A stretch of DNA of 45,643 bases, from the NCBI RefSeq assembly GCF_003334355.1, contig NZ_QOWP01000030.1, one strand, 5' to 3'. Positions 10,534-19,524 of this stretch are shown piece after piece. Position 1 is the stretch's first letter; each line of letters starts with the position of its first letter. The notes beneath the pieces are model-generated. The model was not told the DNA's origin. It did not search any database and saw only the letters and a list, made by a program, of their open reading frames with translations. A program made the translations under genes and the position numbers. The DNA is from Escherichia coli. GTDB lineage: Bacteria; Pseudomonadota; Gammaproteobacteria; Enterobacterales; Enterobacteriaceae.

Positions 10534-11325
10534 ATGCCTGAAGGCCCGGAGATCCGCCGTGCAGCGGATAACCTGGAGGCGGCGATCAAAGGCAAACCAC
10601 TAACTGATGTCTGGTTTGCCTTCCCGCAGTTAAAATCTTATCAATCACCACTTATCGGTCAACACGTTACCCATGTGGAAACGCGTGGTAAGGCGTTGTT
10701 AACTCATTTTTCCAACGACTTAACGCTCTACAGCCATAATCAGCTTTACGGCGTTTGGCGCGTGGTTGATACCGGCGAAGAGCCGCAGACCACGCGAGTA
10801 TTGCGGGTAAAACTGCAAACGGTTGACAAAACCATTCTGCTTTATAGCGCCTCGGATATTGAGATGTTGACCCCGGAACAACTGACCACGCATCCGTTTT
10901 TACAACGCGTTGGTCCCGATGTGCTGGATCCGAATCTGACGCCGGAGGTGGTAAAGGAACGATTATTGTCGCCGCGCTTTCGTAACCGTCAGTTTGCAGG
11001 ATTACTGCTCGATCAGGCGTTTCTGGCTGGGCTTGGCAATTATTTGCGGGTGGAGATCCTCTGGCAGGTTGGGGTGACTGGAAATCATAAAGCGAAAGAT
11101 CTCAATGCGGCGCAACTGGATGCACTCGCACACGCGTTACTGGAGATTCCTCGGTTTTCTTACGCTACGCGGGGGCAGGTGGATGAGAATAAGCATCATG
11201 GGGCGCTGTTTCGCTTTAAGGTTTTTCATCGTGATGGCGAACTGTGCGAACGCTGTGGCGGCATCATTGAGAAAACCACGTTGTCCTCGCGCCCGTTTTA
11301 CTGGTGTCCAGGCTGCCAGCACTAG
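10534..11325 (+). CDS. nei: Endonuclease VIII (DNA glycosylase/AP lyase, Fpg/Nei family)
   Basis: 263-aa ORF starting MPEGPEIRR (N-terminal Pro and Glu catalytic residues) and ending with a zinc finger CERCGG...CPGCQ. Confidence 0.95.
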
Positions 11326-12368
11326 GCCGACCGCTTCGGCGCATAGGTTGAAATAAACCGCGCAATGGCTGGCCCCGTCAGCAAAATACTGAACAGGCGC
11401 AGGGTTTGCATCGCCATAATAAGCGCCATATCGGCATTGCTCCCTGCGGCGATGACCGCCACGGTATCAAGCCCGCCGGGACTGGTGGCGAGGTAGGCAG
11501 TCATAAAATCAATATGCATAAACCGGGTCAGTCCCCACGCCATACCTGCACAAATAGCCAGCAGAGCAAAAATCGACAGCAGGATTTGCGGTAGTGGGCG
11601 TAGTGCCCGCAGTAAGATTTGTTTATCGAAACCAAGACCAATCCGCCAGCCAATTGCCATATACGCCATCGCCAGCAGCCATTCCGGTAGTTCGATGGTG
11701 ATGAGCTGACCAGACTGGAGCACTGCGCCCGCCAGCATCGGGATGAGCATCGTGCCGGAAGGAAGACGCAGCAGGCATCCCACTGTACCGGCAACGACCG
11801 CGAGCAAAATAGTAAGCAGGAGATTAATGCTCACTGGCGGGAACCAGACGATATGCTGGTTAACCGCTTCAGCGTTATCGCCCAGCATCATGCGGGTGAC
11901 CAGAACAGCGGCCCCCGCGACGAACAGCACTCGCAGATATTGCATAAACGCCACCAGGCGAATATCTGCGCCGTAATCTTGCGCCATAGCGACCATTGCC
12001 GCCGCGCCGCCAGGAGAGGAGCCCCAGGCACCGGTATTTCCAGGCAATGAGCTATAGCGCACCAATAACCAACCCACAATGGCGCTGGAAAGCAGCGTTA
12101 CCAGTAAAATTGCAAGCACGATCGGCCAGTTGACAGCCAGGGTGGTGAGAATCGAACCAGTGAGGTTTTGCGCAATCATGCAGCCAAGAATGGCCTGGGC
12201 GGCGAGAAAAGCAGAGCGGGGAAGTTGCAGAGTAATTCCGCGCATACTAAAGATGATCCCGGCAATCATCGGCCCAAGTAATAGCGCCGCCGGGAGATGT
12301 ACCGCGAGGAAACCAATAGAAAGGAGAAGTGATAGCACACATAACATTCCCCACTGCAAAACTGGCAT
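11322..12368 (-). CDS. abrB: AbrB-family membrane protein (putative regulator/transporter)
   Basis: Polytopic membrane ORF. I place the start at the ATG at 12368 (MPVLQWGML..., 348 aa) rather than the 374-codon maximum at 12446. Its 3' end overlaps nei by 4 nt. Confidence 0.85.
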
Positions 12369-12519
12369 CCTTCGCTCCCTCATTATTTTCTCTTTGGTGT
12401 ATCGATACAGCATAAAGAAAGCCGGGCCAGGAAAAAATAACAGCAATCAAGGAAAAGGGGAAAATCAGCAATTTTCTGAAAGAGATGCCCTTTCCGGCTG
12501 CAAAGGGCATCATGGCAAA

Positions 12520-13581
12520 TCAGTTATAGTTAATCTTAAAAAGCACCACTGTATCGAAGGGCCCAGCCTCGATGGGGGTACCTGCAATGGACGAAAGTTC
12601 AGCTGTATAGGTTTTTTCGTAGATCAACATGTCACTGGTGAAATCGGCGTATTCAGCATATTTATTGAAGGTATAAGGCGAGGCGTTTTCATCCAGTAAA
12701 CGTAGCTTCAGACCATTACCAATCAACAATGCTTTATCTTCTTCAACCAACGTTTCTTCGGTATAAAAGGAGGAACTAACTTTAAATCCGTCGGTGCATT
12801 GGTCATTTTGTGATTTTGTCGTCTTAATACTGAATGTTTTCGACATTGTGTGGCGACGAATATCCAGCAAATTAAATTTACCAAAATCTATCACCTGTGT
12901 TTCCGGTGAAATGGAAAAATTGACGCTGCAATCCAGCACGCGAATGTTTTCCAGACCAGTAATATGATATTTCAGGTTTTGGGCGGTAGGATCTTCGTTA
13001 ACGCTACCGGCACCGTCAAATTGCACGACGATATAGTCGCTAAGCGTACTTTGATAATCATGCGGCGGCATTTCTCGTATTTTGACGTATAACCGCATGC
13101 GAGCGAGAAAGGTACGCGACATGTGAATATTAGCGGGATCGCCCGAACAAATTTTGTTCTGCCATCCCATCGCGATGATCTGCTCAGGGGTATAAATGTC
13201 AATGTTCTTACTGTCGATACACTGGTTAGTGTCGATGCGGCTTTTTCCCTGGTTGGCGTCATAATCAACGCCATTGTAAGTTACGCCGAGTTGATAATAG
13301 CGATCCTGCACCCCCGGGTAGGGGTTTACCCAGGCGTAGACATGCTCACTTTCAAAGTTGCCGTTGGTATTGTTGTCACAATAGACGGGAATTTTAATAT
13401 CGTCAGATTCCCAAATCTTATCGCCGGGTTTGGCATTGCCTGGTACAGCAAAAGGTTGAATCACTTCTGATTTTTCTACCGAACCACCGGATGAACCAAA
13501 GTAGCAGTTCAGGGCAAGCGCAGACTTCAACGGCAGAAATAACAGACAGATGACGAGCAACACTCCCTTGCCAGCACTCAT
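12520..13581 (-). CDS. ybgO: Fimbrial adhesin-like protein, last gene of a chaperone-usher operon
   Basis: 353 aa from the ATG at 13581 ([23 protein letters not shown], signal peptide), with GGAGG 7 nt upstream. The ATG overlaps the ybgP stop (ATGA). Confidence 0.85.
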
Positions 13582-14309
13582 TTCTTCGCCTCCACGGCTT
13601 GTAAACGGCATTCTCCGCTGCAGTTGAGCGTCGTCATGCGTAACGCGCCGTAATCATCCATATAACCGAGATAAAACTGGCTGCCGCTATAACTTCCGGT
13701 GTTTGTGTTGACCGTACTAAAAGGCGCAATCATCACGGTTTTGAAGCCGGGGAAAACGCCTTTTTCATTTCTCCCCAGATAGGCAATGGTCAGATAATAC
13801 GCGGTAGGATTTTTCAGTGTCAGTTGGTTGCCCTGCTGGCTAACCTGTAACTGCAGTTCGACCTTTTCTCCTGCTTTCTTGCGTAATGCAGCCGGTCGCC
13901 AGAACACCTTGATACGACTCTGAATGGCGACTTGCAGAACGGCATGGTCGCTGTTTTTTTCCGGGGCGGGAGGAATTTCACGCATATTGTAGAAAAATAG
14001 CGTTTCGCGATCGCCCGGTAATTTCGCGGTCGAGGCTTGCTTTACTATCCGCACCTGCGTTGTTGCTTTCGGTTCCAGACGTTGTATCGGTGGCAGGGCA
14101 ACCAGAAGATCATCGCTTTTCTCCCCTTTTTCATTTTCGAGCCAGGAATAAGCGAGGTAGGGGAGTTTATCGCTACGATTATCCACGCGCAGACTGGTAG
14201 CTTTATCATTAGCGTTAAACACAATACGAGTGAGATCGGGTTGTAGTGCAGCGTGGCTGCACAGACTGGCAACCAACAACAAAAGGGGTAGTCCTTTCAT
14301 AAATGTCAT
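13578..14309 (-). CDS. ybgP: Periplasmic fimbrial chaperone (PapD-like)
   Basis: Signal peptide followed by a chaperone-like fold sequence. Start is ambiguous among ATGs at 14315, 14309 and 14300; 14309 has the best AGGA spacing. Confidence 0.82.
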
Positions 14310-14323
14310 TTTCATTTCCTTAA

Positions 14324-16783
14324 TTAATGACAAGGTAAAATCAGGCGATTTGCGGTGTCTTCCATATGTTCAGGAAGATGGAGCGAGCAATGCTGACTAT
14401 CACCCCAGACCACGGTAAACTTTTGATTTTCAGCGACTCCGCTTAACCAGGCATGTCCTTCCTCGCCAACCATCCCCACGCTAATGCCGCTGTCATCCTG
14501 GCGGATATCCGCTCCGAGGGGAGGAAACTGACCGCTGGCGTTGCGAATGATGACGTTAACGTCTTTACCGGAACGGGAAGCCAGTGATTTGTAACCTATC
14601 GCGCCTTCAATCCACGTTTCTTTGATAACGTTTTCTGCAACTGTTACGCCGTCGGGTAAGTCATTCATGTTCACCGCCACGGTGGAAGGCTGGTAACTGG
14701 AAATCAACGGCACCACCGCAATGCCAAAATGGTTGGTGTAGTCGAGATTGCCCTGAACCGGAATATCTGCCACGCCATCGGTGCTGACCATCAGGCGTGG
14801 TTCATTGGTGGAGCTGCGGCGATGAAACGCTGCACCATATTGGGTTGCGGTGAAAGAACCGCTCCAGCTGCTGCTGACGGAACTGTAATCATTGGCGGCA
14901 TAGGTACCAGAAATATCCCACTCACCCGCTGAACTCAGGTGCTGATAGTTACCGCTCACCTGGGCTCCATTGTCAGGACGGTCGGATTGCAGTCCGGCAG
15001 ACATGCCCCAGCTATTACGTTCATCCAGCGTATCGTTCCACGACATGCGGTGTGTGGTGCTGTGGCTACTGTTTTGCATGTCATAGCCAACCCGACCACC
15101 GTTACCGAAGGGGAGCGAAATCGACAGGTAAATCTGGTTGTCGCGATCTTTATCTTCGTAATGGGTTGTATTGAATGACGTCGAAATAGAGATATCTCTC
15201 CAGTCACCAATATCAACATTAAAACCTGCCGTGATGTTGGCGGTCGTGGAGGCGTCTGCATTCCACCAGGTTTGATGTAGCAGGTTGGCGTAAAGATTGA
15301 GGTTTAGTGGGGTAATCGGTTGGCCCACAGATAAGCTGATCGTCTGTTTTTCGTCCTGCGCATCGCTGTCGTTGTATTTGTGATCCAGATAGTTGGCGTA
15401 GCTGTGAAAATGACGATCGGAGAAACGATAAGCGGCGAGGGAAATCGTGCTGTTAGTGGCATCCACTTGTTTGCTGTAATTAAAACGGTAGCTTAAGCCC
15501 CGCTCGTCCTGCTGAGTATCAAAATGGCTACTGGCCCACGTGACATCAAACGACAGCGCACCAAGCCACAGCATATTTTGCCCAATACCCATTGCGGCAG
15601 AATGGTAGTCATCACCAGAAAGCAGCAGGCCGCCGTACAGCGAGGTGTTTGACAGCATCCCCCAGGAAACTTCATTGCTAAAAAAGGTTTCATTTTCAGT
15701 TTGATGTGACATGGAGGGCCGTGGCTGACCCGCGGCCAGTTTATAGCGAACCTGTCCCTGACGAGTCAGGAAGGGCGTCGATGCTGCCGAAACCTGGAAA
15801 TTGTTCACCCGACCATCTTCTTCCGTCACTTTGACATCAAGCGTGCCCTGAACAGACTGATTGAGGTCATCAATAATAAACAGTCCCGGAGGGACTTTTT
15901 TCTGGTAAATGACGCGACCTGATTGACTGATCGTCACCGTGGCATTGGTCTGTGCAATACCGCTAATTTGTGGGGCGTATCCGCGTAGCTCCCATGGCAA
16001 CATTCGATCGTCACTCGCCAGTGCCGCGCCAGTATAAGAAAAACCATCGAAAATATTGGAACTGAAATCGGTTTCGCCGAGGGTTAATTTAGAGCCTAAT
16101 TGCGGTAATGGACGAAAAAGATAGGTGCGCGATATTCCGCCTGACTGTTCATGGCTATCTTCGCTATCGGTGTTATTAAGCTGGTAATCACTGCGTAAGC
16201 GCCATGACCCGGCGTTAATTCCGGTGGTACCGTAGGCGTTCAGGTTAGTGCTGCTGCTGCCGTCCTGTGGGCGGTAGTTGCTGGCAAACAGGTTATAATC
16301 CATCAGGACCCCGGCAACACCTTCTTTCCATGTAGAGGGGGGAGCCCAGTTTTCTGAGTGCCACGCCAGCCAGGCTTGCGGAATACTAATATTCAGTTGC
16401 TGATTGGCTTGATCGAAATTGAAGAGCATTTCAGGTCGGGAACTGAAATCAATACACCGATCTATCTGTGGCAAGGACTGACGGATATCTGGTTTTAAAC
16501 CAAATTTATCGACCAGTGAATCATTGATGCATGGAATGGTTTTGTCACCCTTTTTTTGCCAGTTGATTTTTTGCCCATTACTGATTTGGTTGTTATTCAC
16601 CGCAACGCTAACAAAATATTCACCGGGAGCAATGACTCCTTTTTCCTTTAATAATGAAATATCAATGCGGTCGCGCATTGATTTATCGAGAACATTCAGA
16701 TTAAATTCGACCGCCAATGCGCAAGGCATCGCCATGACCAGGCAGGATAGAAAAGAGAGTCGATAAATATTCACGGTGTCCAT
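14324..16783 (-). CDS. ybgQ: Outer-membrane fimbrial usher protein
   Basis: Large usher-like ORF of about 820 aa. The ATG at 16783 (MDTVNIYRLSF...) is preferred; the 833-codon track start at 16825 is a TTG placed upstream of a GC-rich hairpin. Confidence 0.85.
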   Translation of the reverse strand: MDTVNIYRLSFLSCLVMAMPCALAVEFNLNVLDKSMRDRIDISLLKEKGVIAPGEYFVSVAVNNNQISNGQKINWQKKGDKTIPCINDSLVDKFGLKPDIRQSLPQIDRCIDFSSRPEMLFNFDQANQQLNISIPQAWLAWHSENWAPPSTWKEGVAGVLMDYNLFASNYRPQDGSSSTNLNAYGTTGINAGSWRLRSDYQLNNTDSEDSHEQSGGISRTYLFRPLPQLGSKLTLGETDFSSNIFDGFSYTGAALASDDRMLPWELRGYAPQISGIAQTNATVTISQSGRVIYQKKVPPGLFIIDDLNQSVQGTLDVKVTEEDGRVNNFQVSAASTPFLTRQGQVRYKLAAGQPRPSMSHQTENETFFSNEVSWGMLSNTSLYGGLLLSGDDYHSAAMGIGQNMLWLGALSFDVTWASSHFDTQQDERGLSYRFNYSKQVDATNSTISLAAYRFSDRHFHSYANYLDHKYNDSDAQDEKQTISLSVGQPITPLNLNLYANLLHQTWWNADASTTANITAGFNVDIGDWRDISISTSFNTTHYEDKDRDNQIYLSISLPFGNGGRVGYDMQNSSHSTTHRMSWNDTLDERNSWGMSAGLQSDRPDNGAQVSGNYQHLSSAGEWDISGTYAANDYSSVSSSWSGSFTATQYGAAFHRRSSTNEPRLMVSTDGVADIPVQGNLDYTNHFGIAVVPLISSYQPSTVAVNMNDLPDGVTVAENVIKETWIEGAIGYKSLASRSGKDVNVIIRNASGQFPPLGADIRQDDSGISVGMVGEEGHAWLSGVAENQKFTVVWGDSQHCSLHLPEHMEDTANRLILPCH

Positions 16784-16833
16784 ACCTGATAAATATTTGA
16801 AGAAAGGCGGCGATAGCGCCGCCAAAGTAATAC

Positions 16834-17400
16834 TTATTTATAATCCAGCACGTAGGTCGCATTCGCTGTAACTGCGCCTGGCGTTACAGGTGTAGCCTGA
16901 TCAATTTGTTCCATCCAGGCAAAGAAATTCAGCGTTTGTTCGCTGGAGGTCGGAGCCAGGTCGATATCTGGAGTAGCGGTGCCTAAAACGATATTGCTTT
17001 GATCTTTATTCATTAAACGTACGCCGACGCCGGTGGCTTCACCCGTGCTGGTGTTGTTGAGAATCGGATCTGCGCCGGTGGTTTTCGCTGAGCTATCAAA
17101 GGTGACTGCAACTTTAGAAATCTTGCCACCGGAACCGTTGCTGGAGTTTTCCAGATCACAGTTGACTAAGCGCAGGTCGACAGCAACGGCATCGCTGTGA
17201 TGTGACTGATTAATGTGGCTGGTGGTCACCTGACCGAGTTCAACCTCTTTATCAATATCATCCTGATGTATTTCACACGGTGCTTCAATAACTTCACCTT
17301 TAAAGTGAATTTCACCGGATCCTTCATCAGCTGCATAAACAGGTGCAGTGAATAGCAGAGATATGGCCAGAGCGGTCAATGTTTTTTGTCCTTTAAACAT
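16834..17400 (-). CDS. ybgD: Fimbrial major subunit-like protein
   Basis: 188 aa from the ATG at 17400 (MFKGQKTLTALAISLLFTAPVYA, signal peptide), with AAGGA 8 nt upstream. First gene of the ybgD-Q-P-O operon. Confidence 0.88.
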   Translation of the reverse strand: MFKGQKTLTALAISLLFTAPVYAADEGSGEIHFKGEVIEAPCEIHQDDIDKEVELGQVTTSHINQSHHSDAVAVDLRLVNCDLENSSNGSGGKISKVAVTFDSSAKTTGADPILNNTSTGEATGVGVRLMNKDQSNIVLGTATPDIDLAPTSSEQTLNFFAWMEQIDQATPVTPGAVTANATYVLDYK

Positions 17401-17727
17401 AACTGAGTCCTTTAAATAATGAGATAGAGTGTTGCGTGGCAAGAATATATAAAATGACAATTGAATGTATTTGGTTTTATTTAATAATATTAAAAAGCTT
17501 GTGATATAAAGAATGGAATAATTGAGTGCATAAATTTATTGTTTAATGAGATGAAGGATGGGGTGGGATGGATATGCATAATTTTCATTGGGTTAACAAT
17601 GTTACCGGCAGGGAAGTATAAAAATAAACTTATCATTCTGCTCAGTATGTGACTTGTCTCATTTTTTCACCTTATTAATGGGTATTTGCATCTGGTTTAA
17701 TTTTTACAATTTTTTATGTTCAGCCAT

Positions 17728-17759
17728 ATAAAAAAGAACCCGCTCTATTAAAGGCGGGT
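17728..17759 (-). terminator. Putative intrinsic terminator downstream of gltA
   Basis: On the minus strand: ACCCGC stem, 10-nt loop, GCGGGT, then UCUUUUUU. Lies 30 nt past the gltA stop. Confidence 0.5.
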
Positions 17760-17789
17760 CCGGAAAGTAAACGGCTTAGCAATCAATCA

Positions 17790-19073
17790 TTAACGCTTGA
17801 TATCGCTTTTAAAGTCGCGTTTTTCATATCCTGTATACAGCTGACGCGGACGGGCAATCTTCATACCGTCACTGTGCATCTCGCTCCAGTGGGCGATCCA
17901 GCCAACGGTACGTGCCATTGCGAAAATGACGGTGAACATGGAAGACGGAATACCCATCGCTTTCAGGATGATACCAGAGTAGAAATCGACGTTCGGGTAC
18001 AGTTTCTTCTCGATAAAGTACGGGTCGTTCAGCGCGATGTTTTCCAGCTCCATAGCCACTTCCAGCAGGTCATCCTTCGTGCCCAGCTCTTTCAGCACTT
18101 CATGGCAGGTTTCACGCATTACGGTGGCGCGCGGGTCGTAATTTTTGTACACGCGGTGACCGAAGCCCATCAGGCGGAAAGAATCATTTTTATCTTTCGC
18201 ACGACGAACAAATTCCGGAATGTGTTTAACGGAGCTGATTTCTTCCAGCATTTTCAGCGCTGCTTCGTTAGCACCACCGTGCGCAGGTCCCCACAGTGAA
18301 GCAATACCTGCTGCGATACAGGCAAACGGGTTCGCACCCGAAGAGCCAGCGGTACGCACGGTGGAGGTGGAGGCGTTCTGTTCATGGTCAGCGTGCAGGA
18401 TCAAAATACGGTCCATAGCACGTTCCAGAATCGGATTAACTTCATACGGTTCGCACGGCGTAGAGAACATCATATTCAGGAAGTTACCGGCGTAGGAGAG
18501 ATCGTTGCGCGGGTAAACAAATGGCTGACCAATGGAATACTTGTAACACATCGCTGCCATGGTCGGCATTTTCGACAGCAGGCGGAACGCGGCAATTTCA
18601 CGATGACGAGGATTGTTAACATCCAGCGAGTCGTGATAGAACGCCGCCAGCGCGCCGGTAATACCACACATGACTGCCATTGGATGTGAGTCGCGACGGA
18701 AAGCGTGGAACAGACGGGTAATCTGCTCGTGGATCATGGTATGACGGGTCACCGTAGTTTTAAATTCGTCATACTGTTCCTGAGTCGGTTTTTCACCATT
18801 CAGCAGGATGTAACAAACTTCCAGGTAGTTAGAATCGGTCGCCAGCTGATCGATCGGGAAACCGCGGTGCAGCAAAATACCTTCATCACCATCAATAAAA
18901 GTAATTTTAGATTCGCAGGATGCGGTTGAAGTGAAGCCAGGGTCAAAGGTGAACACACCTTTTGAACCGAGAGTACGGATATCAATAACATCTTGACCCA
19001 GCGTGCCTTTCAGCACATCCAGTTCAACAGCTGTGTCCCCGTTGAGGGTGAGTTTTGCTTTTGTATCAGCCAT
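17790..19073 (-). CDS. gltA: Citrate synthase (type II)
   Basis: 427-aa ORF; translation recognised as E. coli citrate synthase. Confidence 0.97.
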
Positions 19074-19524
19074 TTAAGGTCTCCTTAGCGCCTTATTGCG
19101 TAAGACTGCCGGAACTTAAATTTGCCTTCGCACATCAACCTGGCTTTACCCGTTTGTTATTTGGCTCGCCGCTCTGTGAAAGAGGGGAAAACCTGGGTAC
19201 AGAGCTCTGGGCGCTTGCAGGTAAAGGATCCATTGATGACGAATAAATGGCGAATCAAGTACTTAGCAATCCGAATTATTAAACTTGTCTACCACTAATA
19301 ACTGTCCCGAATGAATTGGTCAATACTTCCACACTGTTACATAAGTTAATCTTAGGTGAAATACCGACTTCATAACTTTTACGCATTATATGCTTTTCCT
19401 GGTAATGTTTGTAACAACTTTGTTGAATGATTGTCAAATTAGATGATTAAAAATTAAATAAATGTTGTTATCGTGACCTAGATCACTGTTCAGGATAAAA
19501 CCCGACAAACTATATGTAGGTTAA

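Follow-up and report, generated by a model that had tools for sequence, protein, structure and literature searches.

The window, a 45,643-nucleotide stretch of Escherichia coli DNA (contig NZ_QOWP01000030.1 of assembly GCF_003334355.1), very probably carries ybgDQPO, a pi-clade chaperone-usher fimbrial system that this strain has in complete and apparently functional form. The evidence supports the reading of the last gene, ybgO, as encoding a two-domain tip adhesin with a presumed position at the fibre tip and a putative receptor-binding domain. The literature and genome annotation already cover the operon, its class, its cryptic behavior and the adhesin-like character of YbgO, and the operon described here is a typical representative of a well-known fimbrial kind. 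The division of the locus into deep, discrete allele classes is new here, though minor. The features of the locus are summarized in Table 1.

Table 1. Features of the ybgDQPO locus and its boundaries (window coordinates)
Feature	Position	Strand	Description
abrB	11322-12368		Flanking gene
Hairpin right after the ybgO stop	12484-12511	minus	GAUGCCCUUUGCAGCCGGAAAGGGCAUC; 10-pair stem when 12369-12530 is folded
ybgO	12520-13581	minus	353 aa, predicted adhesin
YbgO C-terminal pilin domain and stop codon	12520-12930	minus	Residues 218-353
YbgO N-terminal receptor-binding domain (putative)	12931-13512	minus	Residues 24-217
ybgP	13578-14309	minus	243 aa, periplasmic chaperone
ybgQ	14324-16783	minus	819 aa, outer-membrane usher
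Intercistronic GC hairpin with T-rich tail, ybgD/ybgQ	16806-16823	minus	GGCGGCGCTATCGCCGCC, then TTTCTT
ybgD	16834-17400	minus	188 aa, major pilin subunit, signal peptide 1-23
AT-rich regulatory spacer	17401-17729	minus	5' of ybgD, beyond the gltA terminator, about 330 bp
gltA intrinsic terminator (locus boundary)	17730-17760	minus	ACCCGC...GCGGGT stem, then T run; stem conserved in alignment
gltA	17790-19073		Flanking gene

The locus consists of four co-directional, intact genes on the minus strand (12520-17400), bounded by abrB and gltA. Gene starts were taken from the annotation of near-identical RefSeq genomes, and none of the four reading frames is interrupted. The first-pass annotation had placed the operon at 12520-17460; the operon is present, but position 17460 marks the TTG that opens the longest reading frame, whereas the annotated start of ybgD is the ATG at 17400, just preceded by AAAGGA in a stretch conserved in four of four aligned alleles. 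The proposed order of pilin, usher, chaperone and signal-peptide protein, together with the gene sizes, was confirmed by the open reading frames and annotated starts. The identification as ybgDQPO was borne out by synteny and sequence identity with the annotated ybgO, ybgP, ybgQ and fimbrial protein genes of thousands of E. coli genomes; the locus was found at the same position, covered to at least 80%, in 4160 of 5426 complete genomes of the species. Ybg has been assigned to the pi clade (PMC5216030), with which the pilin-usher-chaperone gene order is consistent, and is counted among the core-associated pi-clade fimbriae in the literature. Plus-strand open reading frames inside the operon (including 12079-12699 and 13123-13470), for which there is no support, were rejected as antisense shadows cast by its genes. 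A search of positions 12300-17900 against Rfam at relaxed thresholds returned no RNA family and thus no sign of a riboswitch or small RNA in the spacer.

The first three products have the domains expected from their names. YbgD matched many NCBIfam fimbrial-subunit models, the best being NF007276, with a score of 130 bits that falls short of the 189-bit cut-off. The protein aligns to the FimA and PapA structures from its N-terminal extension (GEIHFKGEVI) to the C-terminal ...LDYK, the extension SGEIHFKGEVIEAPC being matched to GGTVHFKGEVVNAAC of FimA; it carries a penultimate tyrosine at the C-terminus and qualifies as a donor-strand pilin. YbgQ contains the Pfam domains PapC_N (PF13954, E-value 2.1e-34), Usher (PF00577, 1.5e-185) and PapC_C (PF13953, 2.2e-12). 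Its best NCBIfam matches were StdB and related Salmonella ushers (PRK15284/PRK15273), all under the equivalog cut-offs. YbgP, the gene of which starts 14 nt 3' of ybgQ, contains PapD_N (PF00345, 2.4e-33) and PapD_C (PF02753, 1.2e-13).

YbgO had been proposed as a two-domain tip adhesin, and this reading held: the protein combines a signal peptide, an adhesin-like N-domain and a pilin domain recognizable by Pfam and by fold. A pilin-like donor-strand domain, the absence of which had been named as refuting the proposal, is present as PF00419 at residues 218-353 (E-value 2.3e-4). Foldseek matched it to PapA, FimA, PapH, PapE and the pilin domain of PapG with target-normalized TM scores of 0.57-0.67. 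No variation occurs at the disulfide cysteine pair (C218 and C262), at G340 or at the penultimate Y352. The full-length model (pLDDT 89.3, pTM 0.81) had the two-domain tip adhesins LpfD, CupB6, PapG, CsuE and CfaE as its best Foldseek matches; measured globally, the TM scores reached just 0.2-0.3, an effect of how the two domains are oriented to each other, and so the N-domain was modelled again by itself for a separate search. The N-domain is a separate beta-sandwich domain of 194 residues without an N-terminal donor strand, the mature N-terminus entering the globular domain directly. Its nearest receptor-binding domains are those of LpfD, Abp1D, MrkD, UclD, GafD and FimH. The family-level searches gave no assignment: Pfam found no family in the N-domain, and NCBIfam none in YbgO at E-values up to 0.01, with a single chance-level match (BcfD, 0.045) when E-values up to 10 were allowed. 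The protein had also been described as unusually large; its 353 residues are, however, ordinary beside the 349 of YqiI and the 343 in the solved LpfD chain.

The N-domain has been expressed alone and its structure deposited (PDB 9RX0 and 9RWW), in a form two residues apart from the window protein, which shows that it is an autonomous folding unit. The crystallized construct begins at L24, directly behind the ALA cleavage motif of the signal peptide. The two entries were not among the matches from the Foldseek library, which covers releases up to 2026-04-08, and were probably released later. No publication tied to PDB 9RX0, 9RWW, 9RWU or 9RWE was found in the literature search. The ligand specificity of YbgO had been called unknown; no ligand is reported in the literature searched, but that statement is out of date in so far as structures of the N-domain are in the PDB.

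LpfD, MrkD and Abp1D are protein binders rather than lectins, and the YbgO N-domain is not established as a lectin. It is possible, though rather unlikely, that YbgO is a tip adhesin of a non-lectin type, the N-domain of which would bind a host protein, for example of the extracellular matrix, or an abiotic surface.

YbgD is 78.2% identical to its K-12 counterpart at the protein level and 74.6% at the DNA level (dS 1.29), and 71.8% identical to the protein of the O157 allele. Identity to K-12 is 97.5% for YbgO, 97.2% for YbgQ and 89.7% for YbgP, the 5' part of ybgP (about 14000-14300) being a mosaic patch with 73-87% identity to K-12. The window and K-12 alleles thus differ by 22% of the amino acids in the surface-exposed YbgD and by 2.5% in the adhesin, across a sharp recombination boundary, whereas the O157 class shows dS values of about 1.4-2.5 across the whole operon. 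The ybgO gene is covered to at least 80% in 4162 genomes, and the window and K-12 ybgO share their neighbours. The ybgD type of the window is the commonest class, with at least 95% identity in 2825 of the 4186 genomes with a match; the K-12 and O157 types jointly account for 1338. The RefSeq entries inspected label the window class just 'fimbrial protein' and give the name ybgD to the K-12 class; typing of 'ybgD' by PCR, k-mers or a K-12 reference would miss or mis-score the commonest class.

Purifying selection acts on all four genes: dN/dS is 0.03-0.14 across allele classes whose dS exceeds 1.3, so the genes have long been kept working. Positive selection behind the divergence of the adhesin was rejected at the level of the whole domain, the N-domain having a dN/dS of 0.03-0.05. 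A genome-wide association study of 2025 linked variants of ybgP and ybgQ to cattle versus human STEC (PMC12547504). We tentatively consider a joint reading, which we hold to be less than an even chance, in which the classes would reflect balanced antigenic variation of a fimbria used in the gut and the N-domains of YbgO and YqiI would form a structurally distinct receptor-binding family, the receptor of which would contribute to host range.

The operon had been described as richer in AT than its neighbours. This is true (GC content 48.0%, versus 55.6% in abrB and 50.4% in gltA, with 50.5% for the whole window), but the bias within the coding region is small; ybgO, at 44.4%, has the lowest GC content of the four genes. 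The extreme AT-richness noted upstream of ybgD is genuine, with 29.6% GC at 17461-17700 and 31.4% in the entire ybgD-gltA spacer (17401-17789). The spacer is about 63-65% identical to that of K-12, whereas the flanking genes are 98-100% identical. Listings of H-NS-bound promoter regions include the K-12 spacer (PMC3946193, PMC3661553). The silencing proposed by the first-pass annotation agrees with H-NS binding documented at the K-12 spacer, but for the window allele, with a spacer about 64% identical, it is a prediction from AT-richness. Laboratory expression of the window operon is probably low, since a spacer of about 330 bp with 30% GC is the kind of DNA coated by H-NS. The K-12 SELEX promoter (TAAACA-16-TAAAAT) aligns with TGAACA-16-TTAAAC in the window spacer, with poorly kept hexamers. 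No promoter was assigned, because the promoter consensus scan gave 7 sites where shuffled sequence led one to expect 9.0, no sigma-70-like site above the scan threshold was found on the minus strand of the spacer upstream of ybgD, and the K-12 SELEX pattern was absent from the window spacer when up to two mismatches were allowed.

The locus has been described as cryptic in the laboratory, which would suit a relic that is never expressed, heading for loss and without present function. No ybgD match was found in about 1240 of the 5426 complete genomes, some genomes retain just a 3' fragment of ybgO and others carry IS insertions, ybgO is a pseudogene in Shigella flexneri (PMC6854044), and the locus is non-intact in many strains (Wurpel 2013, PMC3559732). 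A relic is nevertheless very unlikely. The four genes are all intact in the window, and their low dN/dS values, with synonymous divergence saturated between the allele classes, are unlike those of unconstrained genes. Transcripts of ybg are raised in HUS-associated STEC (PMC6033998), and overproduction of BolA induces ybgD. Forced expression, which had been suggested as a test, is reported to promote adhesion for the K-12 operon by papers citing Korea et al. 2010 (PMC8249706, PMC6033998). Still less probable is a role for YbgO as a minor or shaft-associated subunit, or as an initiator or terminator of assembly, in place of a receptor-binding tip: the operon encodes just two structural subunits, lacking both an adaptor and a terminator, so roles in it may differ from those in Pap or Fim, but YbgO has the architecture of known tip adhesins and, by the logic of donor-strand exchange, a subunit that accepts a strand and cannot donate one is confined to the distal end of the fibre.

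With YbgO as tip adhesin, assembly would proceed as follows. The four proteins would be exported via Sec signal peptides, and in the periplasm the PapD-like chaperone YbgP would cap the incomplete Ig folds of YbgO and YbgD. The usher YbgQ would accept the chaperone-adhesin complex first, placing YbgO at the fibre tip; YbgD would then polymerize below it by donor-strand exchange through its N-terminal extension, and residues 24-217 of YbgO would bind a putative receptor on the host or on a surface.

Subunit proportions may be set at the RNA level. The hairpin between ybgD and ybgQ has seven G-C pairs, and the 71 nt around it have a folding energy of -17.8 kcal/mol (z -2.4); the K-12 and O157 alleles retain the stem but vary in the loop. 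On the analogy of other fimbrial operons, the hairpin may act as a partial terminator or mRNA stabilizer that sets the pilin:usher ratio, and it probably maintains an excess of pilin transcript over those of usher, chaperone and adhesin. An overlap of 4 nt (13578-13581) between the stop of ybgP and the start of ybgO points to translational coupling of the two genes. The hairpin behind ybgO has a weak T tail and is unlisted by the consensus terminator scan; it is the probable end of the transcription unit.

Little is gained from the finding of the operon itself, the receptor-binding domain of YbgO having already been crystallized. The receptor of YbgO, if found, would extend the gut-colonization repertoire of E. 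coli by a further defined adhesin-ligand pair, and might explain why non-B2 lineages retain the locus while other lineages have replaced or deleted it.

Among known systems, the P pili (Pap) with the PapG adhesin are the archetype of the pi clade. LpfD, the tip adhesin of long polar fimbriae (PDB 5AFO), resembles YbgO at the level of the fold only, with 8-12% sequence identity, and belongs to a gamma-clade operon with a gene order unlike that of ybg. The Yqi system (ExPEC adhesin I, ygiL-yqiG-yqiH-yqiI) is laid out identically, with pilin, usher, chaperone and an adhesin of about 350 aa, although it lies elsewhere (zupT-ribB) and its sequences are only distantly related to those of ybg. YqiI, also the last gene product of its operon, is the paralogue nearest to YbgO (38% identity over 98%), and its N-domain has likewise been crystallized (PDB 9RWU/9RWV). 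A hairpin follows the pilin gene in both operons, that of yqi being a different one at the equivalent place after ygiL. Yqi fimbriae have a published profile of bound glycans (terminal beta-GlcNAc, Lewis A and blood group B), from a glycan-array study that included Yqi but not Ybg (PMC8545135). The ybgDQPO operon of E. coli K-12 (PMC3559732) has the same position between abrB and gltA, the same genes and the same order as that of the window, from which it diverges in YbgD (78.2% protein identity) and in the upstream spacer (about 64%).

Four long open reading frames were found on the minus strand between gltA and abrB. Their order of pilin, usher, chaperone and 353-residue protein, as given by the first-pass annotation, is matched by the reading frames and by the RefSeq annotation of ybgQ, ybgP and ybgO. 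Gene starts are those annotated in near-identical RefSeq genomes, carried over to the window; ybgD, ybgQ, ybgP and ybgO contain no internal stops. The upstream limit of 17460 in that annotation corresponds to the TTG opening of the longest reading frame, whereas the annotated start of ybgD is the ATG at 17400. This ATG is preceded by the Shine-Dalgarno sequence AAAGGA, a stretch kept in an alignment of four highly different alleles. The ybgP and ybgO genes share four bases, and the interval from ybgD to ybgQ holds a GC hairpin with a T-rich tail (stem kept in the K-12 and O157 alleles, loop variable); both details are in keeping with a fimbrial operon. No Rfam families were found in the region.

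Features of the ybg locus and its surroundings, with identity of the window allele to K-12
Feature	Position	Strand	Length (aa)	DNA identity	Protein identity
Direct repeat, first copy	1306-1721
Direct repeat, second copy	2572-2988
abrB	11322-12368
abrB-gltA gap	12369-17789
Hairpin after ybgO stop	12484-12511
ybgO	12520-13581	-	353	95.1%	97.5%
ybgP	13578-14309	-	243	88.5%	89.7%
Mosaic patch (ybgQ 3' end, ybgP 5' end)	14000-14450
ybgQ	14324-16783	-	819	96.7%	97.2%
GC hairpin with T-rich tail	16806-16823
ybgD (RefSeq 'fimbrial protein')	16834-17400	-	188	74.6%	78.2%
ybgD plus upstream spacer	16834-17789
ybgD-gltA spacer	17401-17789
gltA	17790-19073
gltA-sdhC divergent promoter region	~19280-19390

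The wider window is a well-known E. coli region (ybfC, ISAs1-like elements, ybgA, phrB, dtpD, ybgI, pxpBCA, nei, abrB, ybgOPQD, gltA, sdhCDAB, sucABCD and onward). The direct repeats, about 1267 bp apart and 90-92% identical, are adjacent ISAs1-like (ISEc1 family; ybfL/ybfD) transposase genes in a related genome, one of them partial. In related genomes the gltA-sdhC promoter region carries an annotation for a 35-aa 'hypothetical protein' (WP_001305582.1).

YbgQ carries all three usher domains (PapC_N, Usher, PapC_C), YbgP carries PapD_N and PapD_C, and YbgD matches about 20 fimbrial-subunit models. The alignment of YbgD with the solved FimA and PapA structures runs from the donor strand at the N-terminus, where SGEIHFKGEVIEAPC lines up with GGTVHFKGEVVNAAC of FimA, to the penultimate tyrosine at the C-terminus. 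Regarding YbgO, residues 218-353 match the Pfam Fimbrial domain (E 2.3e-4), and Pfam found no domain over residues 1-217. The AlphaFold model (43 homologues; pLDDT 89.3, pTM 0.81) is confident and has two beta domains. In Foldseek searches of the PDB the best full-length matches were the two-domain tip adhesins LpfD, CupB6, PapG, CsuE and CfaE, and the C-terminal part matched many pilins, among them PapA, FimA, PapH, PapE and the PapG pilin domain (target-normalised TM 0.57-0.67). The fold neighbours, each with its accompanying figure, were Abp1D (7.6), MrkD (7.4), UclD (7.3), GafD (7.0), FimH (6.7), CupB6 (6.7), AtfE (6.6) and YhlD (6.4). On the Pfam match, the model and the fold matches, YbgO is thus a two-domain adhesin, as the first-pass annotation had proposed, and is built in the way typical of such proteins; the description of YbgO as unusually large does not hold, 353 aa being ordinary for the class (YqiI, 349 aa).

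In a 2026 copy of the PDB, a sequence search identified 9RX0 and 9RWW ('Fimbrial protein') as YbgO residues 24-217/222, differing from the window protein at two residues (A for V40, L for P52); K-12 YbgO differs from this construct at five positions. Related entries are 9RWU/9RWV, the YqiI N-domain (334 bits), and 9RWE. These five crystal structures cover the N-domains of YbgO, YqiI and a third relative under generic molecule names, and no paper citing them was found in the literature searched. The series is probably very recent, since it is missing from fold libraries ending with the releases of 8 April 2026. The receptor-binding domain has the common fimbrial fold but no close match among the structures released by April 2026.

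On either side, abrB and gltA show 98-100% identity to K-12; within the operon, identity falls sharply where ybgD meets ybgQ and in a patch covering the end of ybgQ and start of ybgP. This mosaic patch is 73-87% identical to K-12, the rest of usher and chaperone 96-99%, and it coincides with high ybgP variant density in a 2025 STEC GWAS (PMC12547504). The O157:H7 allele shows about 78% DNA identity across the whole operon, its boundaries falling within the 3' part of abrB and at gltA. Among 5426 complete genomes surveyed for ybgD and ybgO alleles, ybgD identity to the window was bimodal: at least 95% in 2825 genomes, 80-95% in 23, and 60-80% in 1338, the last band including K-12-type (74.9%) as well as O157-type (71.4%) alleles. 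The majority thus have the window type, and the K-12 type is a minority. ybgD with its upstream spacer forms discrete allele classes, intermediates being almost absent; ybgO classes are less well separated, apart from the O157-type genomes (n=412). Window-type ybgD scores under the NCBIfam cut-off, and in the RefSeq records inspected it is called just 'fimbrial protein', the name ybgD being left off. Nei-Gojobori dN/dS was 0.03-0.14 for all four genes and both YbgO domains, with no domain-wide positive selection on YbgO, and dS between allele classes was 1.3-2.5; these sequence comparisons show long-standing purifying selection, not decay. The allele-class structure is the only result here not evident in the literature searched.

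Published work assigns the ybg fimbriae to the pi clade and counts them as core-associated in E. coli, the locus being often disrupted (PMC3559732; PMC5216030); ybgO is a pseudogene in S. flexneri (PMC6854044). About 1240 of the 5426 genomes gave no ybgD match. At one such locus (L004, 2566-3238) a deletion leaves only a 396-bp ybgO 3' fragment; at another (L005, 9066-17096) ybg is replaced by an unrelated 8-kb island with a GntR/FadR regulator, an RraA-family protein, two dehydrogenases, a split UxaA-family hydrolase and a TRAP transporter. The gap between abrB and gltA is a hotspot of replacement.

The operon is AT-richer than its surroundings (48.0% GC; whole window 50.5%, abrB 55.6%, gltA 50.4%), ybgO being lowest among the four genes (44.4%). 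The spacer has 31.4% GC, and its part 17461-17700, already noted as extremely AT-rich, 29.6%. Silencing had also been proposed. For K-12, one study describes the spacer as a 'promoter island' bound by H-NS (PMC3661553), and another lists it among constitutive-promoter regions associated with H-NS (TAAACA-16-TAAAAT; PMC3946193). For the window allele, H-NS silencing is a reasonable inference only, because the spacer is just 63-65% identical to that of K-12, the hexamers become TGAACA and TTAAAC, and a consensus scan of the spacer found no good promoter on the correct strand.

Assembly is proposed to follow the standard chaperone-usher mechanism. All four products would be exported by Sec; YbgP would cap the subunits, YbgP-YbgO would be recruited first by YbgQ, and donor-strand exchange would then polymerise YbgD. 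YbgO would be displayed at the fibre tip, since by donor-strand-exchange logic the distal end is the only possible place for a subunit without its own donor strand.

PMC6033998 and PMC8249706, citing Korea et al. 2010, report that K-12 ybg, when expressed, promotes attachment both to epithelial (bladder) cells and to abiotic surfaces. ybg transcripts are raised in HUS-associated STEC (PMC6033998), BolA overproduction induces ybgD, and a GWAS distinguishes cattle from human STEC by signals in ybgP and ybgQ (PMC12547504). No report of a YbgO ligand was found in the literature searched, in line with the first-pass annotation, and Ybg is absent from a 2025 review on the fimbrial lectins of E. coli. 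Taken together, the original observation is confirmed and its interpretation supported. The literature and genome annotation already cover the ybg system, and its adhesin domain has been characterised by crystal structures.

The closest comparison is with ygiL-yqiG-yqiH-yqiI, located between zupT and ribB, which has the same layout as ybg, including a hairpin 3' of ygiL as the counterpart of that 3' of ybgD. YqiI, the product of its last gene, is 38% identical to YbgO. Protein binders are among the best structural neighbours of YbgO, and the paralogue YqiI would argue for glycans by analogy: terminal beta-GlcNAc and certain fucosylated glycans are reported as ligands of Yqi fimbriae from an array study that did not cover Ybg (PMC8545135).
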